Counted from the first letter of the stretch, positions 8,324 through 37,214 are shown. The stretch is 37,214 nucleotides of DNA from Clostridia bacterium (GCA_030637025.1 DAOVVV010000026.1:1-37214); one strand, 5' to 3'. A program made the numbers and translations. Notes: a model not told the origin generated them from the sequence alone.

Positions 8324-9277
8324 ATGCGTATTCTTTATATGGGAACACCGCAAGACGCAGTTCCCTTTTTAGAATTTTTATTACAAAAAGAAGAGGTTGT
8401 CGGGGTTGTTACCCGTCAGGACAAGCCTTGCGGCCGGGGATATGTAAAAAAAAATCCTCCGGTGAAAGAATGTGCGATTAAGCATGATTTATCGGTTTTT
8501 CAACCGGGAAAAATTAAAACAGATGAGTTTTTAGGGGAAATGCAAAAACTGCAGCCGGATTTAATTATAGTTGTTGCTTATGGAAAAATTTTACCCAAAA
8601 GAATTTTGAATTTACCTCCGCAGGGCTGTATTAATATCCATTTTTCTCTTTTACCGCAATATCGCGGTGCTTCTCCGGTCCAGTGGGCGATTATAAAAGG
8701 CGAAAAGATAACGGGTGTAACGGTAATGTTTATGGATGAGGGAATGGATACAGGTGAAGTTATTTTACAAAAAGAAGTAGTTATTGAGCAGAAGGACGAT
8801 GTTGTATCTTTAAAAGAAAAACTTATTAAAGCGGGGTGTATGCTTTTAGAGGAAACAATTAATCTGATAAAACAGGAAAAAATTAAAAGGCTTCCTCAAT
8901 CGGGACAGCCCTCATATGCTTCTCTTTTAAAAAAAGAAGACGGTAAAATTTGCTGGAAAAAAAATGCTGTTGATATTAATAATTTAGTACGGGGTTTAAC
9001 CCCGTGGCCGGGCTCATATATAATTACCCGGGAAAAAGAAGGAAATCAAAAAATTTTAAAAATAATGGAAACAGAGCTTTGTAAAGTAGAAACTAAAGAT
9101 GTTTCTTCTTTTATGCCGGGGCAGATTGTAGAGATTAGAAAACATAAAGGGGCTGTAATTAAATGCGGGAAAGATGTTTTGTTGGTGGGAAAAGTGCATC
9201 CGGAAAATAGAAAAGTAATGAATTGCTATCAGTATCTTCAGGGTAAGCATTTGAAAGAAGGGGATTATTTAAAATGA
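8324..9277 (+). CDS. fmt: Methionyl-tRNA formyltransferase
   Basis: MRILYMGTP, VVTRQDKPCGRG, VVAYGKILP, INIHFSLLPQYRGASPVQWAI, MDEGMDTG, RGLTPWPG. Confidence 0.97.
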   Translation: MRILYMGTPQDAVPFLEFLLQKEEVVGVVTRQDKPCGRGYVKKNPPVKECAIKHDLSVFQPGKIKTDEFLGEMQKLQPDLIIVVAYGKILPKRILNLPPQGCINIHFSLLPQYRGASPVQWAIIKGEKITGVTVMFMDEGMDTGEVILQKEVVIEQKDDVVSLKEKLIKAGCMLLEETINLIKQEKIKRLPQSGQPSYASLLKKEDGKICWKKNAVDINNLVRGLTPWPGSYIITREKEGNQKILKIMETELCKVETKDVSSFMPGQIVEIRKHKGAVIKCGKDVLLVGKVHPENRKVMNCYQYLQGKHLKEGDYLK

Positions 9278-10830
9278 AGGATAATATCGAACTAAACGAA
9301 GAATTCATAAAAGCGCTTCATTTACTGGAAAAAACAAGCAGGAATGTGTTTATTACCGGGAAAGCAGGAACAGGAAAATCCACCTTGCTTGATTATTTTC
9401 GGAATACTACCAAGAGAAAAGTAGTGGTTCTTGCTCCTACCGGTGTTGCGGCGGTAAATGTTAGAGGAGAAACAATTCATTCTTTTTTTAGGTTTAGGTC
9501 CAATGTTAATTTAGAAAGAATTAAAAAGATTAAATCTAAAAAAGCCCGTTCTATTTATTGCGAAATAGATATAATTATTATTGATGAAATTTCTATGGTA
9601 AGAGCGGACCTCCTGGATTGTGTGGATAAGTTCTTGAAGTTAAACGGAAAAAATTCCCATTTGCCATTTGGCGGGACGCAAATGGTTTTTATCGGTGATT
9701 TATATCAACTTCCTCCGGTGGTATTAAGCAAAGAAAAAAATGTTTTTAAATCTTATTATAAAAGTTCTTATTTTTTTTCTGCTAAGGTTATTGATAATTT
9801 TAAAATGGAATTTATGGAATTACAAAAAATATATCGTCAGCAGGATAAAACCTTTATCGATATATTAAACAGTATTCGGAACAATACTATTACTCCCCAA
9901 CATTTAAAAATGCTTAACAGCCGGGTCGAACCTGATTTTAAAATGGAAGAAGGTAATAGTTCTGTTTACCTTACTTCTACCAATAGGTTAGCTACAAAGA
10001 TAAATCATAACCGGTTAAATGGGCTAAAATCGGAATTATATGTTTATGAAGGAGACATTGAAGGTGAATTTGATAAGAAATACCTGCCTACCGATTATGA
10101 ATTACAGATTAAAGAAGGAGCACAGGTTATACTACTTAATAATGATGCTTTTGGTCGTTGGGTAAATGGAACAATAGCTAAAATTGTGGCAATAAAAAAA
10201 GAAGTTGGGGGAGTAGCAGATACTATTCTGGTGAAACTTCCCGGAGGGAACATAGAAAAAATTAATCCTTATAAATGGGAATTATTTCATTTTGAATTTA
10301 GTTCCAAAACTCAGATACTGGAAAACAAGGTTATTGGGAAATTTATTCAGTATCCTTTGAAATTGGCCTGGGCAATAACCATTCATAAAAGTCAGGGAAA
10401 AACTTTTGATAAAGTGATAATAGATGTTAGCGGTGGAATTTTTGCTTATGGACAAACTTATGTTGCTTTAAGCAGGTGTACAAGTTTAGAAGGGATAACC
10501 CTTACCAATCCGATAAAAGAGAAACACATATTTACGGATTATCGAATTGTAAATTTTATGACTAATTATCAGTATGAAATTTCCGAGAATATTTTGCCTT
10601 TGAAGGAAAAAATTAAAATTATAAACCAGGCTATCAAAGAAGATAATCATCTTAAAATAACTTATCTTAAACGAAATGATGAGAAATCCCAAAGAACAGT
10701 AAAACCAATCGTAGTGGATGAAATGACTTATTTAAAAAGGCCCTTTTTAGGAATGGAAGCATATTGTTTTGAAAGAAAAGATAAACGGGTCTTCAGAATA
10801 GACAGGATATTGGAGATTAGTGAGGGATAG
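9274..10830 (+). CDS. Pif1-family SF1B DNA helicase with C-terminal WYL domain
   Basis: FITGKAGTGKST, LAPTGVAA, TIHSFF, IIIDEISMVRADL, GDLYQLPPV, QYPLKLAWAITIHKSQGKT, YVALSR. WYL-like tail AIKEDNHLKITY...RTVKP...EAYCFERKDKRVFRIDRI. Confidence 0.92.
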   Translation: MKDNIELNEEFIKALHLLEKTSRNVFITGKAGTGKSTLLDYFRNTTKRKVVVLAPTGVAAVNVRGETIHSFFRFRSNVNLERIKKIKSKKARSIYCEIDIIIIDEISMVRADLLDCVDKFLKLNGKNSHLPFGGTQMVFIGDLYQLPPVVLSKEKNVFKSYYKSSYFFSAKVIDNFKMEFMELQKIYRQQDKTFIDILNSIRNNTITPQHLKMLNSRVEPDFKMEEGNSSVYLTSTNRLATKINHNRLNGLKSELYVYEGDIEGEFDKKYLPTDYELQIKEGAQVILLNNDAFGRWVNGTIAKIVAIKKEVGGVADTILVKLPGGNIEKINPYKWELFHFEFSSKTQILENKVIGKFIQYPLKLAWAITIHKSQGKTFDKVIIDVSGGIFAYGQTYVALSRCTSLEGITLTNPIKEKHIFTDYRIVNFMTNYQYEISENILPLKEKIKIINQAIKEDNHLKITYLKRNDEKSQRTVKPIVVDEMTYLKRPFLGMEAYCFERKDKRVFRIDRILEISEG

Positions 10831-14998: not shown

Positions 14999-15183
14999 TT
15001 ATGAGGATAGAAAAATTGTAATTACTCTTAAAAGTAAGATAGTAAATATGAGAATGTTTAGTTAAAGGGTTGAAACATTGGAAGGCAGCCAGATAAAAAA
15101 GCTAAACCGTAAAATATACGCAGAAAAGCAATATTCCCGGAATTTGGAAAAGGAAATGAATGAATAAAAAGGGAGACAAGAAA

Positions 15184-15447
15184 ATGAAAAAAAAGAATAA
15201 GAGAGTTGAGGAAATGAAAAAAGTACTTGAAGCTTGCGGCGAGGAAATGAGTATAGATGAGGAAATGAAAATGAAAGGGTATTTAAATAATATTGTTATG
15301 CTAATAAAGGATATTGTCAAAGGAATTAGAACGTATAAGTCATTAAAATATATTGAAAAAATGCAACTTATAACTATAATAATTTGTATTGGCGTGGTTG
15401 TTCTTGCGTGTGTAATAGGATTTCTTGATGGATTGGCACAACTCTAA
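15184..15447 (+). CDS. Small hypothetical protein with C-terminal TM helix
   Basis: GGAGA RBS before ATG 15184 (in frame with 15160); hydrophobic C-terminus LITIIICIGVVVLACVIGFL. Confidence 0.5.
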   Translation: MKKKNKRVEEMKKVLEACGEEMSIDEEMKMKGYLNNIVMLIKDIVKGIRTYKSLKYIEKMQLITIIICIGVVVLACVIGFLDGLAQL

Positions 15448-15484
15448 GCTTTCAAGGAATGAAGGATGATATCCTGAAAAACGA

Positions 15485-15629
15485 TTAGACTTCTATAACA
15501 CATTCTGTCTGCCTATCCGCTCCGCCTGAGGCGGATGATGCGGAATCTATAATGTTCTTAAATATTAATAGATTCCTGCTTTCGCAGGAATGACAATAAA
15601 GGTAAAAAAGCTATTTTGCAGAAGTCTAA
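15485..15629. mobile_element. MITE-like remnant with 10-bp terminal inverted repeats enclosing REP/RS3-like hairpins
   Basis: TTAGACTTCT ... AGAAGTCTAA; internal TCCGCCTGAGGCGGA and GATTCCTGCTTTCGCAGGAATGAC (15571-15594). Confidence 0.55.
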
Positions 15630-15820
15630 AAAACGATATAAAAGGAGGAAAAAATTTTACATTTGAAAAAAAGTTTGAGAAAATAATCCGTTAAAACAAG
15701 GATTCCCTCAAAGCTATAATAAATTCCACAGTAAAAGCCAGAGATTTTTTCAGGAAGGATAGAGTAAAAAGATGGAATGACCGGGTATTTAATAAAATAC
15801 ATTATAGCGATTATTTATAT

Positions 15821-16060
15821 CTATTCTATGTTTTCCCATTGATTTTCCTGTTCTTTAATTTTTTGGTTGATTTGGTTGACTTTATCTTTTGCTGTATTAA
15901 TCATTCCCGGAAGATCGGAGGTATTAATGCCTTCTTTCGCCAGTTCCTTACTAATTGACGAATTATTCATCGAAATATTCATCATTGTATAATACAAGAA
16001 ACCGATAATAACAACTACTATTAAAATTTCTATCAATCCGAATCCTTTTTTTCGTTTCAT
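15821..16060 (-). CDS. Small prepilin-type N-terminal methylation domain protein
   Basis: MKRKKG/FGLIEILIVVVIIG: basic leader, G/F cleavage site, Glu at +5, hydrophobic helix; only 79 aa. Confidence 0.8.
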   Translation of the reverse strand: MKRKKGFGLIEILIVVVIIGFLYYTMMNISMNNSSISKELAKEGINTSDLPGMINTAKDKVNQINQKIKEQENQWENIE

Positions 16061-16445
16061 ATCGTTTACCTTTTTTTCTTTAATATTTATTTAAAAGTTA
16101 CGGAAAAACTTTGTTATTTATTTTTTCCTTCTTCGGGAAATCATTGTGCTGATTGATAGTAAAATCATTATAATACCGAGAATTATTAATAGAGTGTGCA
16201 TGGTTTGTATCCCTATTTATTGTATATAAAAAAAAGCTAAAATGCAAGAAATTGCTCAAATAAGTAATGTCAAGATTTATTCTGAGTTGCATTTTAAAAT
16301 AAGCCCGATTGCTATTTCTTGTTAGTTTTTGCTTTTTTTAAAGGTTTATTCTGTCAGAAATTTTTTACTGTTGACTTTCTATTATTTTATTGTTAACTTA
16401 TCTATATAGAACACTTTAGTTTTTTTCAGAAGGAGGGAGAAATAA

Positions 16446-24040: not shown

Positions 24041-24122
24041 GGGCAGGTGGCGGAATTGGCATACGCGTGCGCTTGAGGGGCGTATAGGGAGACCTGTGCG
24101 GGTTCAAGTCCCGCTCTGCCCA
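24041..24122 (+). tRNA. tRNA-Leu(GAG)
   Basis: Acceptor GGGCAGG/TCTGCCC + A; D-arm TGGCGGAATTGGCATACGC; anticodon arm TGCGC-TTGAGGG-GCGTA; long variable arm; T-arm GCGGG-TTCAAGT-CCCGC; CCA not encoded. Confidence 0.97.
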
Positions 24123-28656: not shown

Positions 28657-28699
28657 GGCCCGTAAAAGGTTTTATCGGTTTTTTAAAGGGGAGTAAAAA

Positions 28700-29482
28700 A
28701 TGATAAAAAAGGTAATAATTGTTTTAGTAGGTGTTTTTTTTAGTGGTTGTGCTACTATGAATGAGTATAAAAGTATTCCTCCCAGGGTAAAAAAATTAGA
28801 AGATAAGTTAAATGATTTACAGAAGAATTATGCCGGCATGAATGCAAGAATTGACGAATTAAATATATCTGCACAAATTATAGATGGGAAGGTAGAAGAA
28901 AATCATTATAATATGAGTGATGTTTCGGGAAGGTTAGATGCAATTGAAAGTAATTTAGGCCAGCGTTTATTTTTACTGGAGGAGAAGGCAGGTTTTTCTG
29001 CAATACAAAGTTATCCTTCTTCTTCTAGTTCAACAAACCCGGCTCAAAAACAAAATATACCTAAAAGCAAAAATAAACAGTCCTTTAAAAGGTCAAAATC
29101 TTCTCCCCGTCAATTGTATCAGGCTGCTTATGATGACTATGTAAAGCGTAATTATGCTTTAGCCTTAACCGGGTTTCAGCAATATCTTAAACAATATCCT
29201 CAGGGAGAATTATCCAGTGGATCACAATATTGGGTTGGTGAATGTTATTATAGCCAGGGAGATTTTAAAAATGCTGCTTCTGAATTTGGTAAAGTAATTG
29301 CCCGTTATCCTAAGAGTAACAAGCTTCTTGCTGCAAAACTAAAAAAAGCATATTCTTTAGTTCAATTAGATAAACGAAAAGAAGCTATAGCTCTTTTTGG
29401 GGAAATTATTGATCAAAGTCCTCTCTCTACAGAAGCAAAGTTGTCTAAACGAAAAAAAGCGGAGCTGGAAAAAGAAGAATGA
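28700..29482 (+). CDS. cpoB: Tol-Pal system protein YbgF/CpoB
   Basis: Lipobox FSG-C, coiled coil, TPRs (LYQAAY, QYWVGECYY, YPKSNK); directly follows pal. Confidence 0.88.
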   Translation: MIKKVIIVLVGVFFSGCATMNEYKSIPPRVKKLEDKLNDLQKNYAGMNARIDELNISAQIIDGKVEENHYNMSDVSGRLDAIESNLGQRLFLLEEKAGFSAIQSYPSSSSSTNPAQKQNIPKSKNKQSFKRSKSSPRQLYQAAYDDYVKRNYALALTGFQQYLKQYPQGELSSGSQYWVGECYYSQGDFKNAASEFGKVIARYPKSNKLLAAKLKKAYSLVQLDKRKEAIALFGEIIDQSPLSTEAKLSKRKKAELEKEE

Positions 29483-30171
29483 GAGCGGTAAATATTAAGA
29501 AATATACTTTGCCACTATTGGATATAAGGAAAGCGATTGTTTTTTCTATTTGTTTACATATATTAATTTTGGGAATGAGTTCTTTTTTAAAGTCTTTTTA
29601 TTACAAAAAAACTTATTGGGTAATAGAACCTGTAGAATTAATACCTTTCGCTTCTTCTACGCCTGTAATAAAGAAAACCGCAAAAAAACAAGAAAAAAAG
29701 AAAAAAGAGAAAAAAAAGGTAATTATTCCATCTAAAGAAAAACCTATAGTTAAGAAAAAAATCCAAAAATCCAAAGAGAAAAAAGAGGATGAAAAAAATA
29801 CTATAACCCAGAAAGAAGAAACTATTCAGGAGGTACAGCCTACAGGTGGAATAGTTTCTATAGAAGGGAAAAAATTTCCTTTTGCTTATTATCTTGAACT
29901 TATTCAAAATAAGATTAATCACCAATGGCGTTCTCCTTGCAATGTTCTGGAAAATAAAAAAGTAGTGGTTTTTTTTAAAGTTCTTAAAGGGGGGCAGGTT
30001 AAAAATATTTCTTTAGAAGAGAGTTCGGGTGTTTTTCTTTTGGACCAATCAGCTTTACGGGCAATATGGCAGTCAGCCCCTTTTCCCCCTTTACCGCAGG
30101 GATATAAAAAAGATTTCTTAAATGTACATTTTAAGTTTGAGTTGAAGTTACAACAGGAAGGGTTAAAGTAA
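29479..30171 (+). CDS. tolA: TolA/TonB-family energy transducer
   Basis: TM with SxxxH (SICLH), Lys-rich linker, C-terminal SSG..LDQSALRAI..SAPFPPLP; translationally coupled to tolB. Confidence 0.8.
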   Translation: MRAVNIKKYTLPLLDIRKAIVFSICLHILILGMSSFLKSFYYKKTYWVIEPVELIPFASSTPVIKKTAKKQEKKKKEKKKVIIPSKEKPIVKKKIQKSKEKKEDEKNTITQKEETIQEVQPTGGIVSIEGKKFPFAYYLELIQNKINHQWRSPCNVLENKKVVVFFKVLKGGQVKNISLEESSGVFLLDQSALRAIWQSAPFPPLPQGYKKDFLNVHFKFELKLQQEGLK

Positions 30172-31436
30172 TGCGTTATTTATTCAGATTTATGATTATT
30201 TGTCTGATAGTGAATTTTTATTTATCGGTACCTATTCAGGCAACGGATGTTTATCTTAGAGGGTTAAAGCAGGCCGGTAGAAAAATAACTATTGCTATCC
30301 CTGATTTTGAAAATGAATCGTCTTTAAATGATAAGGAAAATTTTTCAAAAAAAATAGCGGTAATTTTAAAAAATGATTTAACTATGTCAGGATGGTTTGA
30401 AGTTATTGATAAAAAAGATAGTGATATTGATATAGGAACCTCATCAGATATAGAAGCTTTAATTAGAGGAAAGTATAAGATAAAGAAGGGAATGTTGGTG
30501 TTGGAATGTTCTCTTTTTTATGTTCCAACCCAAAAATGGATTATCGGTAGAAATTATGTAACCAGTAAAAAGAAATTACGTTCACAGATTCATAAGTTCA
30601 GTAATGAAGTTATTTTCAGGTTAATCGGGGAAAAAGGAATTGCCCATAGTAAGATTGCTTTTGTTTCTGATAGTTCCGGACATAAAGAAATTTATGTTAT
30701 TGATTGTGATAGTTATAATTTGCATAAATTAACCAGGGATAAATCTTTAAATGTTTTACCCCGTTGGTCTAATGATGGAAAACGCATTATGTATACCAGT
30801 TACAAACGTAAAAATCCGGATCTTTATTTAATAATGGCCAATGGACAATATAATGTTCCTATTTCTTCCTTTCAGGGGTTAAATTTAAGTGGTGATTGGT
30901 CACCTAAAGGGGATAAGCTTTTGATTACTTTAAGCAAAAGAGGGCCGCCTTCGGTTTATATTTTTGATTTAAAGAGAAAGAAAGTTCGCCGTTTAACTTA
31001 TTTCTGGGGAATTGATTGTTCCCCTTGTTGGTCACCTAGTATGAGGGAGATAGTTTTTAGTTCTACCCGTACAGGAAATCCTCAGATTTATGTGGTAGAT
31101 AATGAGGGCACTAATCTGCGTCGGTTAACTTACAAAGGATGGTATAATGTTACACCCAGCTGGTCACCAAAGGGAGATAAAATTGCTTATGTATCTTCTG
31201 ATAAAGAAGGATATAATATTTATACTATAGATGTTAATGGCTCTAATGTCCGGCAGTTGACTAAAGATGCCGGTGATAATGAAGATCCTTCTTGGTCCCC
31301 TGACGGTCAGTATATTATATTTAGTTCTACCCGTAGAGGAAAATCCGAACTTTATATGATGAGAGCGGATGGAACCGGTCAATTTAAATTTCTATCTTTG
31401 AAAGGAAATTGTTTTACTCCCTCCTGGTCGGATTGA
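30171..31436 (+). CDS. tolB: Tol-Pal beta-propeller protein TolB
   Basis: IAIPDF, DLTMSGWF, GEKGIAHSKIAFVS, PD40 repeats (PRWSNDG, WSPKGD, PSWSPDG), terminal PSWS. Confidence 0.94.
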   Translation: MRYLFRFMIICLIVNFYLSVPIQATDVYLRGLKQAGRKITIAIPDFENESSLNDKENFSKKIAVILKNDLTMSGWFEVIDKKDSDIDIGTSSDIEALIRGKYKIKKGMLVLECSLFYVPTQKWIIGRNYVTSKKKLRSQIHKFSNEVIFRLIGEKGIAHSKIAFVSDSSGHKEIYVIDCDSYNLHKLTRDKSLNVLPRWSNDGKRIMYTSYKRKNPDLYLIMANGQYNVPISSFQGLNLSGDWSPKGDKLLITLSKRGPPSVYIFDLKRKKVRRLTYFWGIDCSPCWSPSMREIVFSSTRTGNPQIYVVDNEGTNLRRLTYKGWYNVTPSWSPKGDKIAYVSSDKEGYNIYTIDVNGSNVRQLTKDAGDNEDPSWSPDGQYIIFSSTRRGKSELYMMRADGTGQFKFLSLKGNCFTPSWSD

Positions 31437-31716
31437 TCCTGAGCTACTGCAGGGAGTCGAAGGGGATTGAGTTTGATTTCCCACAGCTTGCTGCAAAAAA
31501 GTTATGTTGGATAAACTTTCGATACCCTGTAGCTTGCTGCGGGGTAGTTTTTTTTGGAGTCTGAAAGATATAGTCATAAGTAGTCAAACAATAGTCAAAA
31601 AATGGTCAAACATAGTTATTATATGACGCGAGCAAATTTTTTCCCTTTGAAAAAGGTGGTTAGGGGGATTTGTGACTAGTTGTGACACAGTGTTTATGAG
31701 TCAGAAATCAGAATTA
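31437..31716 (+). repeat. Composite array C / REP-like cluster downstream of tolB
   Basis: CCTGAGC..AGTCGAAGG; CCCACAGCTTGCTGC; ATACCCTGTAGCTTGCTGCGGGGTAGTT (31522-31549); T(A/G)GT(C/T)A x5 at 31571-31618; TTCCCTTTGAAAAAGGTGGTTAGGGGGATTT (31641-31671); 31673-31701 similar to 22210-22238. Confidence 0.8.
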
Positions 31717-31826
31717 AAAAGATAAAGAATAAATAAAGGTTTAAACAAGCAAAAAATTAATCTGAATTTGTTATCTTAAGGCTTCTATTTTGAATAGAGT
31801 ATTTAGGCGGGGATTGTAACATTATT

Positions 31827-32819
31827 ATGAACGAATTATATGAGCTACTATATGACCATGAAGTAAGCAAAAATAATTTGAAAGAATTATTAGGGTTATT
31901 TAACGAAGATAAATTTGTATCTTTTATAGGGGCAGGACTTTCCGCTCCTTTAGGAATAGGTCTTTGGAAAAAAATATTGCAGGAATTAATAAATATGGCA
32001 AAGAACAAATTTTCGGAAAGTGTAGAATTTAGAGAAGAGCCGAAAGAATGGCCGCAATTAGCAAGTGAGGTTTACAATATTTTTGAAAAAAATGATTGTG
32101 TTGTGTTGTTTTATGATAAATTAGTTGAGAGATTAAAACCGACGACTTGTTCATGGACTGCTATTCATTACAAACTTGTTAATACCTTCGGCATTTATTT
32201 AACAACTAATTTTGATGCAACAATAGAAAAGGCATTTATAGACATAAAAGAAAAGAAACCCAATATACAGTGCTTACCAGATTTTAGTTTATTAAATCTT
32301 AAAAATGAAAGTCTTGTTTATTTGCATGGTAATAAAACGAAACGAATATTTATTTTTAAAAAAGAAGAATATGACCTGTTTTATCCTTCGGTGAGTGAAA
32401 TACAAAATGGTTCACAAGTTCTGGAAAATTTCTTAAAAGAATTCTATAAAGAAAAATGTATAGTATTTTTTGGTTTCAGCTTTGAAGATTATTATTTAAA
32501 AGAGTATTTTAAAAGCTTACCTCGTATTATTGAAAAAGAAGAATTAAGTAAAGAACGATTATATAGAAGTAGTGATACTGAATACAAACGGAAGCAATTT
32601 AATCATTTTCTTATACTATCTGAAGATACATGTAAAAGGTATAGAGATAGAAAAATAGAAGGTTTTTGTGAAGAGTTTGAATCAATTAATATAAAACCAA
32701 TTGTTTATCGGAATGATCAGCATATTTTTATTGACAAGCTGTTAGACCAGCTCTCAATAAAAAAAGACAACAAAAAGCCAGTAAGTTTAGACCAAAAAGA
32801 GGTTAGTGGAGAGATATAA
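31827..32819 (+). CDS. Stand-alone SIR2-like (SIR2_2) NADase-type protein, putative defence effector
   Basis: FIGAGLSAPLG..W, YLTTNFD, VYLHG, VFFGFSFED; lacks the zinc-ribbon CxxC pairs of CobB deacylases. Confidence 0.88.
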   Translation: MNELYELLYDHEVSKNNLKELLGLFNEDKFVSFIGAGLSAPLGIGLWKKILQELINMAKNKFSESVEFREEPKEWPQLASEVYNIFEKNDCVVLFYDKLVERLKPTTCSWTAIHYKLVNTFGIYLTTNFDATIEKAFIDIKEKKPNIQCLPDFSLLNLKNESLVYLHGNKTKRIFIFKKEEYDLFYPSVSEIQNGSQVLENFLKEFYKEKCIVFFGFSFEDYYLKEYFKSLPRIIEKEELSKERLYRSSDTEYKRKQFNHFLILSEDTCKRYRDRKIEGFCEEFESINIKPIVYRNDQHIFIDKLLDQLSIKKDNKKPVSLDQKEVSGEI

Positions 32820-32824
32820 AAATT

Positions 32825-35677
32825 ATGAATATAACTAATGGATTTTATAACACGGCAGAAAAAATCGATAAAATTTTGGAGAAAGATTCTCCTAACTTTG
32901 ATTTTAATAATTTATTCTTTTTTATTTCTAACAAAGCATATGAAAATTACTTCTTTAAAAAAGTAGATTCTCTTAAGTGGTTTTGTCCTCTTAAGAAGAA
33001 AGGTTATTTTGATTCTAAAAATAATCCATCATCACAACCAGCAAAAGAGGAGGGTTATTTTACTATTCCTCATTGGAATGTGTTAGATTATTTAGAAAAA
33101 GTATCATTAAAAACATCGCAAGAAGAAAATAAAAAATATGCAGATGAATTAATGCAAATAATTAGAGATTTTACCAGCCCAAAAGATGGTGAAAAAGTAG
33201 ATAATTATCGAACATGGTGGGTATTTACTAAGATATTGGGTAATCTCCCAAATGACAAAATAAGATTAGAGGATATAGAACTTATTCAAGAATGGTATGA
33301 TAGTAAATTTGGTAATGAACTTATTGATGAGGAGATTGGTAGTAACTTATTGCCTAAATTTTTAAATAGTCAAAATCCCAATGATTGGGAAAAAGCAACA
33401 AAAATTATTGATATTATAACTACTTTAAAAGAAACAGAAACGCAATATGGTGAAAAAGAATTAAAGACAATGGTTAAGGATTACTGGCTTCTGGAATTAT
33501 TTAAGAAGAACAGTGATTTATTAGGTAAAAGGTGTGTACCTGAAGTTGTTGAAATTCTGAAAGAAAGAATCAAACAAGTTTTAAATACAGGAGAAAGTAA
33601 TGGAAAATATTCTTATATGTGGCTTCCTGTAGTTAGTGAATATCGCCAAAATGTTTCATTAGACGAACCTAAGAAATTTCTCGTAGTTGGTTTAGGAAAT
33701 ATTTTATTGTCTGCTGCTGAAGATGAGAAAAAAACAAAATTAATTTTGGAAGCGTTTTTAAAAGAAGAGAAGGAAGTTTTTAAACGAGTAGCTCTTTTTG
33801 TTATTAGTAAAAATTATATGCGATACAAAAAAGTTTTTTGGAATTTTATTAAGAGAGAACACTTTGATAGCCTTAATTTAAGACAGGAATTATCTGTTTT
33901 ATTAAAAGACAATTTTGAAAACTTTAGAGAAGAGGAGAAAAAAAAGATATTGAATTTTATCAAACAAGGTCCACAACAGTTGCAAAAAAAGGATGAAGGA
34001 ACATATAGAGCAAATTGGATGCAAGGATGGCTTAAAGCCATTATTAACAAGGGGTATTCAGACGCAGACTATTTATATAATAAATGTAAAGAAATAACAG
34101 GTAGAGAACTAGAGCATCCGGAATTTGGATTTTATATTAAACCTGTTACTTGGCCAGGAGAGGTTAGTCCTATTACTAGGGAGAAGTTGTTGCAAAAATC
34201 CAATGAGGAAATAGCAGATTATTTAAATAATTTCAAAGAAGATGGAAGAGGGTTTAAGCAGCCAACAATGTCTGGTTTAAGCGAAATATTGAGAGGTGCT
34301 GTTAAAGAAAAGCCTGATAAATTTACAGAAGATTTAAACCCATTTTTAAATACAAGACTTGTCTATCAATATAATATCATTCGTGGTTTTGAGGAGACAT
34401 GGAAAGAGAAGAAACAAATAAATTGGAATATGATTCTCCAGTATTGTTGGGATTTAATCAATAAAAATGGTTTCTGGCAGAACGAAGAAACATATAAGAA
34501 TACTTCTCTTAAATATAGAAATTGGACAATTTCTTTTATTGCTGACCTTATTGCCGTAGGTACAAAAAGTGATGATTGGGCATTTTCAAAGGACTATTTT
34601 CCTATAACTGGAAAAATACTTGTAAAAATACTTAAATACCAAGAATCAGAAATGAAAGATACAAAAGATGCCCTTACTAAGTCTATCAATACCGCGATAG
34701 GAAAAACTATAGAGGCATTAATTTTCTATTGTCTGAGATATGCAAGAGAATTCCATAACAAACCGGAAGATAAAGATAAACCAAAGTGGAGTAACGAGAA
34801 GGTTAAAGATGTTTTCAGGCGTGCTCTTGATAAGGAAGATGATAGTTTAGAGTTTTCAGTTTTAATGAGCAGATATTTGCCTAATCTATTATGGTTGGAT
34901 AGAGACTGGGTTACTCAGGATATAAACAAACTGTTTCCTAAAAGGGATACTAAACATTGGAATGTGGCAATGCAAGGTTATTTGTTTAACCAGAGGGTCT
35001 ATAATGATGTTTATAAGTTACTCAAAGAAAACAACCATTATTTAAAAGGCTTGGAAGAAGAATTTGAAGATGAAAGAGTCCGAGAATATTTAATTCAGCA
35101 TATTTGCGTAGGTTACTTAAGGGGTATTGAAAATTTATGTGGCAGTGATAGTTTGTTTTCGAGATTATTGACGGAGTGGGAAGAGAAAGATATTCGAGAA
35201 ATAATTTCTTTCTTTTGGGGACATCGTGATATGCAATTAGAAGATGAAATAAGAGAACGTATATTAAAATTTTGGCAATTCTGTTGTAATAAATTGAAAG
35301 AAAAGGAATTAACAGAAGAAGATAACAGTATTCTTTCAGATATAAATCTTTTAGCAGTTTTTTTAAAAAATTTAAAAAACGGTAAAAAAGACTGGTTATT
35401 ACAATCTATTCCTTATGTTAATAAAAATCACCATAGTGATTTTTTATTGGAATATTTAGACTTATTGACCGAGGAAAATTCTTATGAGGTGTGCGAGATC
35501 TATTTAAGGATGTTGGATTATACTGTTCCATCATATGATAAAGAGAATATTAAATCCATAATCATAAAACTTTATGCTCAAGGGCAAAAAGAATGTAGTA
35601 ATAAAATATGCAATATTTATGGAAGTCTAGGATATGAATTTTTAAGGCCAATATATGAAGAGCATAATAAAAAATAG
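32825..35677 (+). CDS. 950-aa hypothetical protein, probably alpha-helical solenoid; putative partner/sensor of SIR2
   Basis: Long ORF 5 nt after the SIR2 stop, in a different frame, with GGAG upstream. Amphipathic Trp/Leu-rich helices; no signal peptide, TM segment or Walker A seen. Confidence 0.8.
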   Translation: MNITNGFYNTAEKIDKILEKDSPNFDFNNLFFFISNKAYENYFFKKVDSLKWFCPLKKKGYFDSKNNPSSQPAKEEGYFTIPHWNVLDYLEKVSLKTSQEENKKYADELMQIIRDFTSPKDGEKVDNYRTWWVFTKILGNLPNDKIRLEDIELIQEWYDSKFGNELIDEEIGSNLLPKFLNSQNPNDWEKATKIIDIITTLKETETQYGEKELKTMVKDYWLLELFKKNSDLLGKRCVPEVVEILKERIKQVLNTGESNGKYSYMWLPVVSEYRQNVSLDEPKKFLVVGLGNILLSAAEDEKKTKLILEAFLKEEKEVFKRVALFVISKNYMRYKKVFWNFIKREHFDSLNLRQELSVLLKDNFENFREEEKKKILNFIKQGPQQLQKKDEGTYRANWMQGWLKAIINKGYSDADYLYNKCKEITGRELEHPEFGFYIKPVTWPGEVSPITREKLLQKSNEEIADYLNNFKEDGRGFKQPTMSGLSEILRGAVKEKPDKFTEDLNPFLNTRLVYQYNIIRGFEETWKEKKQINWNMILQYCWDLINKNGFWQNEETYKNTSLKYRNWTISFIADLIAVGTKSDDWAFSKDYFPITGKILVKILKYQESEMKDTKDALTKSINTAIGKTIEALIFYCLRYAREFHNKPEDKDKPKWSNEKVKDVFRRALDKEDDSLEFSVLMSRYLPNLLWLDRDWVTQDINKLFPKRDTKHWNVAMQGYLFNQRVYNDVYKLLKENNHYLKGLEEEFEDERVREYLIQHICVGYLRGIENLCGSDSLFSRLLTEWEEKDIREIISFFWGHRDMQLEDEIRERILKFWQFCCNKLKEKELTEEDNSILSDINLLAVFLKNLKNGKKDWLLQSIPYVNKNHHSDFLLEYLDLLTEENSYEVCEIYLRMLDYTVPSYDKENIKSIIIKLYAQGQKECSNKICNIYGSLGYEFLRPIYEEHNKK

Positions 35678-35717
35678 TTTGTTCAACGGGATAGAATCAA
35701 GGAGAAGAATTTACAAA

Positions 35718-35861
35718 GTGACCAAACGTGAATTATTTAAGCTTATAAAATATGGTGAAAATCAAACAGTTTCTTTCAAAGCGTTAAAAACCAAGCCTTC
35801 TATTTTAGCCAAGCCGATTTTTGCTTTTCCAATTGCAGACGGCGGGAATAGAATTTTTTAA
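35718..35861 (+). pseudogene. Truncated, degenerate AlbA_2/Schlafen-like domain fragment
   Basis: VTKRELFKLIKYGENQTVSFK..PSILAKPIFAFPIADGGNRIF* parallels the family pattern LIxxGExxxVEFK...LAKxIxAFANxxGGxI(x)IG, but has SFK and FPI and stops early; AAGGAG upstream. Confidence 0.65.
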
Positions 35862-35942
35862 CTTATCCTGTTTTGTAATTAGCACAGTTTTAACAAATAA
35901 ATCATATAATGATTACAGCACAGATAAGAAAAAAGGATTTTT

Positions 35943-35971
35943 TTGACATTTGTTAAATTTTTTGCTATATT
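35943..35971 (+). promoter_or_regulatory. Sigma70-type promoter for PASTA-rpe
   Basis: TTGACA-17 nt-TATATT with an extended -10 TG. Confidence 0.6.
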
Positions 35972-35977
35972 TAAGCC

Positions 35978-36005
35978 AAACCCCGCAGCAAGCTGCGGGG
36001 TAGTT
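35978..36005. repeat. GC-rich palindrome, second copy of 31522-31549
   Basis: AAACCCCGCAGCAAGCTGCGGGGTAGTT; 23/28 identical to the copy upstream of SIR2. Confidence 0.85.
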
Positions 36006-36029
36006 GATTAATAAACTATAGGGGTTAAA

Positions 36030-37046
36030 ATGAATATTATTGATAAGTTATTTGTAGGCGATAAAAAAATAAAAGCAAAAAAGATAATGAAAATTGTTGG
36101 AGAAATCGTTTTTCTTTTACTTCTTTTGTTTTTATTGGGTTTGTTTGGGCTTAACCAAATAATGACTGTACTTGTACATAGCAGAAAATCAGTTATGGTT
36201 CCGAATTTAACGGGAAAGACTATAGAAGAAGCGGTGGATATTTTAAGTGAGGAAAATTTGTATCTAAAAAAAGACGCAGAACAATATAATAGTTCTATTC
36301 CTCCCGGTTATATACTTTTCCAATCTCCTTCCGCCGGTGATGTAGTAAAAGAAAAAAGGGTCGTAAAGGTAATTATTAGTCAGGGGGGAGAAGTAATTTT
36401 TGTCCCGGATACAATAAATCAAGGTTTGCGTAGTGCAGAAATTATTTTAAGACAGGTGGGTTTATCACTGGGAGAACAAACAAGAGAGTATTCTGTTAAA
36501 GTTCCCAGGGATTTAGTTGTTTCGCAGGATCCTCTTCCCCATACTACCGTAGGAAAGGGAACGTTGGTTAATCTTGTGATTAGTGATGGGCCTCCCGGGG
36601 AAGGAACCTTGTTAATGCCGGATTTAATTGGTAAAAAAATTAAAAAGGCTATGGAAATAATCAAACAGTGGAATTTGATTATTGAAAGAATTGATAGGGA
36701 AGAAAATGATGAATACGATGCGGATACTGTAATTGCTCAAAATCCGCAGGCGGATACCCTGATAGAAGAAGGAGACAATCAAAAAGTATTTTTAATTATA
36801 AGCATTAAGAAGGGAACAGAAATTTCTTCTGTTAAGAAAGAAACAAAATTTATTTATTACGAAGTTTCTCAAGGGATGTTTGATAAAGATTTGCGAATGG
36901 TACTTATAGATGGTTCAGGAGAAAGAACAGTATATGATAAGGTTCATCCTCCCGGAACAAAAATAAATATTCCTGTTGAAGTAATAGGAAAAGCAAAAGT
37001 TAAAATATATGTTAATGATATTTTAATGGTAGAAAAGGACTTATAA
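36030..37046 (+). CDS. Membrane-anchored protein with three PASTA domains (no kinase domain)
   Basis: N-terminal TM; VPNLTGKTIEEA..QSPSAG, VPDTIN..SQDPLP, MPDLIGK..AQNPQA. Confidence 0.92.
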   Translation: MNIIDKLFVGDKKIKAKKIMKIVGEIVFLLLLLFLLGLFGLNQIMTVLVHSRKSVMVPNLTGKTIEEAVDILSEENLYLKKDAEQYNSSIPPGYILFQSPSAGDVVKEKRVVKVIISQGGEVIFVPDTINQGLRSAEIILRQVGLSLGEQTREYSVKVPRDLVVSQDPLPHTTVGKGTLVNLVISDGPPGEGTLLMPDLIGKKIKKAMEIIKQWNLIIERIDREENDEYDADTVIAQNPQADTLIEEGDNQKVFLIISIKKGTEISSVKKETKFIYYEVSQGMFDKDLRMVLIDGSGERTVYDKVHPPGTKINIPVEVIGKAKVKIYVNDILMVEKDL

Positions 37047-37050
37047 AGCT

Positions 37051-37214
37051 ATGGTGAAAATTGCTCCCTCCATTTTGACTTGTGATTTTAGTGATTTAAC
37101 CGGAGAAGTAAAAAAGATGGAAAAGGAAAAAGTGGATATGTTGCATTTGGATATTATGGACGGCCATTTTGTTCCCAATCTTTCTTTTGGCCCGATGGTG
37201 GTAAAATCTTTACG
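37051..37214 (+). CDS. rpe: Ribulose-phosphate 3-epimerase (3'-truncated by the window)
   Basis: Manual translation MVKIAPSILTCDFSDLTGEVKKMEKEKVDMLHLDIMDGHFVPNLSFGPMVVKSL; not in the ORF track. Confidence 0.96.
   Translation, partial: MVKIAPSILTCDFSDLTGEVKKMEKEKVDMLHLDIMDGHFVPNLSFGPMVVKSL

Follow-up and report, generated by a model that had tools for sequence, protein, structure and literature searches.

Introduction

DSR1 is described as a single protein with a SIR2 domain that depletes nicotinamide adenine dinucleotide (NAD+) upon infection, and, in the account given by the same preprint, the depletion seen with phi29 is transient and the culture does not collapse (bioRxiv 10.1101/2021.12.14.472415). 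The Dsr1 sensor, which is common to Avs7, is reported to recognise the phage major capsid protein, the trigger of the E. coli Dsr1, and defence by a sensor of this type is reported to need the N-terminal effector (PMC12803255; PMC13581612). DSR2, by the published descriptions, senses the tail tube protein (PMC10981675, PMC11087589, PMC11850899). Here, we examine a stretch of 37,214 nucleotides (nt) from a Clostridia bacterium (GCA_030637025.1, DAOVVV010000026.1:1-37214; hereafter, the window), in which a gene for a SIR2 protein, P0001, is followed directly by a gene for a large helical protein, P0002. We propose, with a probability of roughly 80%, that these genes constitute a two-gene DSR1-like anti-phage system, composed of a putative SIR2 NADase effector and a separate, putative solenoid sensor. 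Judged from its sequence matches, the system is a split, effector-swapped variant of the known DSR1, in the broad sense in which PADLOC uses that name, and not a new class of system.

DSR1 has been catalogued and studied as a one-protein system, and the separate-gene form, which was the majority here (163 of 254 family proteins), is common but little studied; annotation tools built around one gene can give half of the system a wrong label or overlook it. As parts of PMC13581612 indicate, its authors had already seen split forms. Our literature search found no paper with a two-gene DSR1 as its subject; the large supplementary tables of PMC13581612 may classify such forms, and the words 'split', 'SIR2' and 'Dsr1' were not found in its six supplementary files, the large tables aside.

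Results

A SIR2 gene and a putative DSR1-like sensor gene lie 5 nt apart

The pair consists of the following features; the term 'type B' denotes a SIR2 lineage that is defined below.

31827-32819, plus strand: SIR2 effector gene (P0001, 330 amino acids [aa]), an open reading frame (ORF) with an ATG start; a stand-alone 'type B' SIR2_2 protein, predicted to be NADase-like.
32825-35677, plus strand: sensor gene (P0002, 950 aa), an ORF with an ATG start; a predicted DSR1-like alpha-solenoid.
32808-32824, plus strand: junction, with GGAG, the TAA stop and a 5-nt spacer before the sensor ATG.

The original prediction, made from the window alone, had paired a 330-aa SIR2 protein with a 950-aa protein 5 nt downstream, in a different frame and with its own GGAG, and we recovered the two ORFs exactly as predicted. 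The GGAG (32808-32811) lies within the 3' end of the SIR2 gene, whose TAA stop (32817-32819) is separated by 5 nt from the sensor ATG at 32825, and arithmetic on the coordinates places the ORFs in different frames. No terminator-like site was found between the two genes in a terminator scan. Sigma-70-like sites were no commoner than in shuffled sequence (18 versus a mean of 23.4), with none convincing upstream of the SIR2 gene, and the Rfam and tRNA scans of the window returned only a tRNA-Leu (24041-24122) and left the spacers empty. The SIR2 and sensor genes, divided by only a 5-nt spacer, are probably co-transcribed.

P0002 had been described as helical and devoid of a recognised catalytic motif, and this description held: a Pfam scan returned nothing above noise, and the AlphaFold2 model, built from a 118-sequence alignment, is made of nearly all helices (mean pLDDT 92.0, pTM 0.80). 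Features of HerA, pAgo, TIR, Macro or STAND proteins, which had also been reported as absent from this partner, were not found in the Pfam and PADLOC scans. The PADLOC Dsr1 model PDLC04166, in contrast to the Pfam models, matched P0002 with an E value of 9.6e-203: residues 6-949 aligned with model positions 289-1226 of 1227, which is the entire model except for its N-terminal SIR2 part. The same model matched all 25 of the stand-alone relatives that were scanned, and a fused, 1251-aa SIR2 relative (P0007) aligned with P0002 over its residues 289-1246 at 41% identity. Canonical Dsr1 models gave weaker but co-linear matches: PDLC02183 (E 6.1e-09) aligned residues 609-742 with model positions 959-1082 of 1275, and NCBIfam NF041818 (E 1.5e-17, 62.7 bits) aligned residues 598-736 with model positions 938-1070 of 1263. 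As in DSR1, the SIR2 part comes first and a helical sensor of ~940 aa follows. The match to PDLC04166 along the whole post-SIR2 length, the 41% identity to P0007 and the conserved gene order described below all support the split DSR-like design that the original prediction had put forward, in which sensor and effector are two distinct polypeptides. The prediction had given a full-length match to an already named system as a refuting result; the partner is a near full-length match to such a system, DSR1, and the pair is thus better described as a DSR1 variant than as an unnamed system.

The most conserved part of the sensor is its N-terminal ~140 residues, with blocks around F43-F62, P82-S94 and D126-T130 and an invariant N127. 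A profile of 118 sequences retrieved 6037 cluster representatives at E <= 0.001, and 2721 at E <= 1e-30, among 1.84 billion. In the ESM Atlas, the clusters nearest to P0002 are unnamed 'hypothetical protein' clusters of 785-955 aa, with DUF4020 (11% of members) and HEAT (10%) as weak leads.

P0001 resembles defence-associated SIR2 NADases

All four of the SIR2 motifs that had been read by eye as intact (GAGxS, TTNFD, LHG and GxSxxD) are present in the P0001 translation, as FIGAGLS (33-39), LTTNFD (125-130), YLHGN (165-169) and GFSFED (216-221), and Pfam assigned the protein to SIR2_2 (PF13289; E 1.3e-12). The predicted catalytic residues, Asn128 and His167, are intact, a feature shared with DSR1. 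When 37 SIR2 proteins encoded in operons with sensors were aligned, N128 was invariant, and H167, D130 and the G35-A-G motif were conserved in at least 90%. The best PADLOC models were LmuA (E 1.7e-18), matched at positions 2-216 of 433 only, and ThsA (PDLC00407; E 6.1e-11), matched at positions 10-275 of 478 only; the score against NF041818 was 11.7 bits. Among solved chains, the best by sequence were SeThsA (7uxt, E 1.8e-08) and KomC (8zsf).

The structural prediction agrees with these matches. The AlphaFold2 model of P0001 (pLDDT 89.4, pTM 0.88) is one compact fold, with helices and strands through residue 314, and its closest folds are ThsA (8btp, 7uxt), KomBC (9v0g) and the SIR2 domains of DSR2 (TMq ~0.6, E down to 2.7e-13). 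Neither SLOG/STALD nor any other extra or ligand-binding domain was found on P0001 in the Pfam and PADLOC scans. In sirtuins, the zinc module with its CxxC pair marks the deacetylases; no such pair is visible in the P0001 translation.

The split between effector and sensor is conserved

A word-indexed search for sensor relatives found 149, and the best 120, which were listed, include proteins of 916-966 aa without an annotated domain, proteins of 1229-1260 aa with PF13289, and proteins of ~1100-1224 aa with TIR families. From genome contigs we then gathered 60 related loci, which come from many bacterial phyla and three archaea, and determined how far each sensor ORF extends beyond the N-terminus of P0002. 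An extension was lacking in 39 loci, measured 133-176 aa in 14 and 279-314 aa in 7. All seven long extensions contain SIR2_2. Among the short ones, 9 of 14 contain TIR_2, and the remaining 5 (L012, L017, L023, L051 and L059) have no Pfam match at E <= 0.001; these TIR-sized N-termini may be unrecognised effector domains.

For 37 of the 39 stand-alone sensors, an ORF directly upstream on the same strand could be assessed (the other two, L008 and L062, are without usable upstream DNA or ORF). The gap between this ORF and the sensor ranges from -80 to +68 nt, and in 12 of the 37 pairs the two overlap by 4 nt. The upstream ORF encodes SIR2_2 in 36 loci and TIR_2 in 1 (L019). As had been suggested for follow-up, the homologs of P0002 were thus found either adjacent to an effector (SIR2_2 in 36 of all 39 stand-alone loci, TIR_2 in 1) or fused to one, as SIR2_2 and TIR_2 forms. 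With this gene order repeated in dozens of genomes that are unrelated, the pairing of SIR2 with the sensor is far beyond chance.

The genome that contains the window (2.36 Mb, 77 contigs) also carries a second pair. On contig C59 (locus L064:4206-8469, minus strand), a gene for a 360-aa SIR2_2 protein overlaps a gene for a 1063-aa sensor by 11 nt; neighbouring genes include an HD/HD_assoc (dGTPase-like) gene and an NAD synthase gene.

The same architecture dominates a larger set. When 254 family proteins, drawn from the relatives and the profile search, were classed by their N-terminal extension, the classes were as follows.

No extension (stand-alone sensor): 163 of 254 proteins.
TIR-sized extension: 55 of 254 proteins.
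SIR2-sized extension: 25 of 254 proteins.
Extension of 201-270 aa: 6 of 254 proteins.
Extension of 41-110 aa: 1 of 254 proteins.
Fragments: 4 of 254 proteins.

In the sensor clade of P0002, the separate-gene form is the rule.

These data bear on a trivial explanation of the pair, namely that a frameshift has split a single DSR1 gene into the two ORFs, be it an artefact of sequencing or assembly or a gene that decayed recently. The ORFs do lie 5 nt apart in different frames, and their summed lengths, 330 and 950 aa, come near the 1227-1260 aa of fused relatives. The same split, however, occurs with varied junctions in 36 other loci from many phyla, as well as in the C59 pair of the same genome, and 163 of the 254 family proteins begin at the sensor, without an N-terminal domain. 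Moreover, the SIR2 lineage of P0001 was never seen fused: its best match to a fused SIR2 among the 254 proteins reaches only 58 bits and 27% identity. We also aligned contigs from four public metagenome runs to positions 31400-36100. A contig from run X1, possibly the source sample, spans 31520-36046 without a gap at the junction, and a contig from X3, which carries no mark as a possible source sample, spans 31669-33373 and crosses the junction with 0 differences. A frameshift error joining the ORFs, which the original prediction had raised against itself, was not seen on these contigs: no indel at 32812-32825 was listed in any of the 4 runs. A broken gene is thus extremely improbable, and the recurrent split and the gap-free independent contig exclude it for practical purposes. 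From these results, we conclude that the split is real and conserved.

Two SIR2 lineages are found with one sensor family

We built a maximum-likelihood sensor tree (IQ-TREE quick, LG+G4) from 47 complete sensors, comprising 45 of the 60 loci and both pairs of the window's genome; it omits 15 loci that are cut at an end or broken (L008, L009, L011, L014, L018, L020, L022, L033, L036, L040, L045, L054, L056, L062 and L063). The split-SIR2, fused-SIR2 and fused-TIR forms interleave in this tree, with 16 label changes, compared with 18.0 on average after shuffling. Examples are the split L026 and the TIR-fused L010, which are sisters, and the C59 sensor, whose sister is the SIR2-fused L015 at 60% identity. 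P0002 itself falls in a starred clade of six rows, which holds split, SIR2-fused and unknown-fused members.

A second tree was built from 44 SIR2 sequences (37 split proteins and 7 fused N-termini, omitting the truncated L056 and the TIR protein of L019). It contains a seven-member clade with an SH-aLRT value of 99, which we term type B: the SIR2 proteins of the window, of C59 and of L027, L043, L044, L047 and L053. Every type-B SIR2 is encoded by a separate gene (7 of 7), and all 7 fused SIR2 domains lie in the other clade. P0001 is 30-36% identical to the six other type-B proteins (35% to that of C59), and reaches no more than 27% identity and 58 bits against any fused SIR2 among the 254 family proteins. 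Type-B SIR2s are partnered by sensors that are spread over four regions of the sensor tree. A search from the SIR2 side with a 4-sequence type-B profile returned 5 loci, of which 4 have a sensor directly downstream (2 new and 2 found again); the fifth contains a distant SIR2 (24% identity) without a sensor.

By its position in the tree, the SIR2 of the window belongs to a distinct, ThsA/LmuA-like lineage, of which only trans-encoded members have been seen to date. Because this lineage is separate from that of the fused SIR2s, the window system is more than a DSR1 cut in two, combining a DSR1-like sensor with a different SIR2 lineage. The split DSR-like design of the original prediction needs a correction here: P0001 is not just a detached DSR1 SIR2 domain, as it is of a different lineage, lacks a match to the Dsr1 model and matches LmuA and ThsA best. 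The interleaving of forms shows that effectors are freely exchanged on a DSR1-like sensor scaffold. With two SIR2 lineages and TIR interleaved on one sensor tree, the family is a clear example of how modules are exchanged in prokaryotic immune systems.

A broader version of this idea is that the DSR1-like sensor is a plug-and-play platform, whose N-terminal ~140 residues serve as a universal adaptor for unrelated effectors in cis or in trans. The effectors would comprise two SIR2 lineages, TIR and at least one unrecognised domain, and type-B SIR2s would be obligately trans-acting, would hop between sensor lineages and would work as free or filament-forming NADases once released or activated. 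We consider this version possible but doubtful. If it were true, a genome with two pairs, such as this one, could cross-wire two sensors to one kind of effector.

Predicted mechanism and comparison with named systems

By analogy with DSR1 and DSR2, the two-gene DSR1-like system that we propose most likely depletes NAD+ upon phage sensing. The SIR2 and the sensor would form a complex in which the sensor keeps the SIR2 inactive; the solenoid would bind a phage structural protein, as Dsr1 and DSR2 do, and this binding would turn the SIR2 on. The SIR2 would then hydrolyse NAD+, and the loss of NAD+ would stop phage replication. A complex prediction with SIR2 and sensor residues 1-660 of 950, run with a separate alignment for each protein and without controls, gave a score of 0.00, which weighs neither for nor against binding. 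The natural two-chain form lets the control of a SIR2 NADase by a solenoid, the need for a covalent link and the interchange of effectors be tested directly.

A defence pair could also operate by a logic other than that of the cis-type DSR1. The sensor might act catalytically on many free SIR2 proteins that polymerise as ThsA and KomC do, or the SIR2, rather than depleting NAD+, might modify a target or produce a signal. It fits such a logic that the ThsA/LmuA-like SIR2 clade was seen as a separate gene only, its partner sensors coming from four regions of their tree, and that the top fold matches of P0001 are the helical (filament) assemblies of ThsA and KomBC. Yet the 330-aa protein carries no SLOG/STALD or other ligand-binding domain, translation of the two genes is tightly coupled in relatives, which suggests a stoichiometric complex, and there are close relatives among the sensors that work with a SIR2 in the same chain, as illustrated by the C59 sensor and the fused L015 (60% identical). 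We therefore consider these alternatives unlikely, and favour a DSR1-like complex in which NAD+ is depleted.

The proposed system differs from each of the described systems that it resembles. DSR1 is a single chain, whereas the window system has two polypeptides, whose ORFs are separated by a stop codon and a 5-nt spacer. DSR2, with its SIR2, MID and alpha-solenoid C-terminal domains, is described as coupling a SIR2 NADase to an alpha-solenoid whose ligand is a phage structural protein, a logic that we suppose here as well, and the P0001 model superposes on DSR2 SIR2 domains (TMq ~0.6); DSR2, however, is again a single chain, and P0002 has no sequence or profile match to any PDB chain. ThsA of Thoeris is among the closest sequence models and folds for P0001, but P0001 lacks SLOG/STALD, and no ThsB/TIR gene lies nearby, the neighbours being TolB and a PASTA protein. 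Similarly, LmuA of the SIR2 type of Lamassu is among the closest SIR2 sequence models, but no SMC-like LmuB or LmuC is nearby, and the only co-oriented partner is the Dsr1-like solenoid. Avs7, a STAND NTPase, is described as sharing its sensor type with Dsr1 and as having exchangeable N-terminal effectors (PMC13581612); in contrast, the Pfam and PADLOC scans found no NTPase domain in P0001 or P0002. Nor were STAND NTPase, HerA ATPase or pAgo/APAZ domains found among the Pfam and PADLOC matches of the pair or its flanking genes, features that would mark the Avs, SIR2-HerA or SPARSA systems. The unnamed relatives with a fused TIR or other effector (such as P0006, P0041, L010 and L016) share the sensor scaffold at 34-41% identity, and their effector likewise stands on the N-terminal side; they differ in that this effector is TIR_2 or an unrecognised domain of 133-176 aa, and is fused and not separate.

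Several observations, on both proteins and on their setting, weigh against the DSR1-like reading. The sensor score of 62.7 bits lies far below the NF041818 equivalog cut-off of 1400 bits, so that cut-off does not place P0002 in the family, and only 3 of 25 stand-alone sensors matched NF041818 at E <= 0.001. Because the score is so low and few relatives match, the family of P0002 stands, on profile evidence, on a distant branch of the Dsr1-type sensors, outside canonical Dsr1, to which its link is remote. A Foldseek search with the P0002 model, which the original prediction had recommended, returned only generic HEAT/ARM solenoids in the top 50 PDB matches listed (TMq 0.13-0.32), including the eukaryotic CAND1, importins and MMS19; no defence sensor, DSR2 included, is among these 50. 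Similarly, neither phmmer nor the 118-sequence profile found a solved relative of P0002 in the PDB, where DSR2 entries are present. Because only generic solenoid folds were matched and there is no solved relative, the binding of a ligand by P0002 is proposed by analogy. As for the SIR2, P0001 had no match to the Dsr1 model PDLC04166 in the PADLOC-DB scan, and the SIR2 part of this model is matched by 31 of the 37 operon SIR2s but by only 1 of the 7 type-B proteins; P0001 is thus of another lineage than DSR1, in a clade that excludes all 7 fused SIR2 domains. Finally, the neighbours of the pair are housekeeping genes (Tol-Pal, PASTA and PPDK, the last being pyruvate phosphate dikinase), and not a defence island.

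The housekeeping neighbours, together with the generic solenoid fold, would also suit a pair that is not a defence system at all, with a SIR2-like deacylase or ADP-ribosyltransferase on a helical scaffold serving a cellular function. We consider this very unlikely. P0001 is a SIR2_2 protein whose closest matches in sequence and in fold (LmuA, ThsA, KomC and DSR2) are all defence NADases; the CxxC pair of a sirtuin zinc module is not visible in it; the same sensor is alternatively fused to TIR domains; and the locus is present or absent among congeners and compositionally foreign, as described below. A DSR1-like defence system thus remains our preferred reading of the pair.

The pair lies in a strain-variable insert

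The pair stands between tolB (30171-31436; PD40 repeats and TolB_N) and a gene for a protein with three PASTA domains (36030-37046), in agreement with the tolB and PASTA neighbours named in the original prediction. Further upstream lie the PPDK gene and a Tol-Pal-like block, which comprises OmpA-family, TPR/YfiO-like and TonB_2 proteins as well as TolB. Comparison with other genomes of the genus delimited the following features.

31519-35937, no strand assigned: insert of 4419 bp that bears the pair and is absent from a genome of the same genus (comparison with G003).
31524-31549, plus strand: left copy of a 26-nt palindromic hairpin (direct repeat D5, inverted repeat I1), which is also a terminator-like site after tolB.
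35980-36005, plus strand: right copy of the hairpin, just before the PASTA gene (direct repeat D5, 85% identical, 4456 nt from the left copy).

Contig C368 of the congener G003 aligns to 28695-31518 and to 35938-37214 of the window with 20 bp between the two segments; in this genome, tolB and the PASTA gene are 20 bp apart and have no pair between them. The pair is also absent from this position in G001, where ~700 bp separate the two genes; G002 is uninformative on the insert, as both tolB and the PASTA gene end at contig breaks. The 26-nt palindromic hairpin flanks the insert as a direct repeat, and the terminator scan reported its left copy as a hairpin at 31523-31546, followed by a T run.

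The word CCGG, which had seemed rare by eye at the pair, proved to be so by count: the insert contains 2 sites (0.45 per kb; observed/expected, 1.1), versus 157 sites in the other 32.8 kb of the window, where 25.5 were expected (4.79 per kb; observed/expected, 6.2). The guanine-plus-cytosine (GC) content of the insert is 29.5%, versus 34.5% in the rest of the window. These data demonstrate that the insert is strain-variable and compositionally foreign. We also observed that CCGG is lower (1.8-2.9 per kb) over roughly 10-19 kb of the window, where GC also drops to ~30%.

In the metagenome contigs, joints that skip the insert occur beside the filled form. The joint 31469>35980 was found in X1, X3 and X4 with a side of 29, which is under the caution mark of 30, and the joint 31518>35938 was found in X5 with a side of 34. 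These joints fit a presence/absence polymorphism of the insert and are supportive only, as the contigs come from mixed communities. X5, which belongs to another study, covers 32751-35925 with contigs ~92% identical to the sensor gene; almost nothing in it covers the SIR2 gene at a likeness of at least 90%, and a contig beginning at 32751 departs from the window over its first 60 letters. X5 may therefore hold a strain with the same sensor but a different upstream gene.

Other features within and around the insert were as follows. Sequences in the spacer between tolB and the SIR2 gene (31427-31555, 31570-31617 and 31622-31704) recur on many contigs of the same genome and of G001-G003 at 75-96% identity; they look like genus-specific dispersed repeats, similar to repetitive extragenic palindromes (REP) or miniature inverted-repeat transposable elements (MITE), and the hairpin on either side of the insert is among them. 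Just 3' of the sensor gene, inside the insert, lies an ORF of 47 codons with a GTG start (35718-35861, plus strand), which has no Pfam match, and positions 35817-35910 are conserved at 81% in G001, which is without the pair. Elsewhere in the window, ~1.4 kb (15000-16445) contain no ORF of at least 100 aa on either strand, only ORFs of 41-95 aa, and gave no Rfam or tRNA match. A gene at 9274-10830 (plus strand) encodes a 518-aa PIF1-like helicase with a C-terminal WYL domain and adjoins a methionyl-tRNA formyltransferase-like gene.

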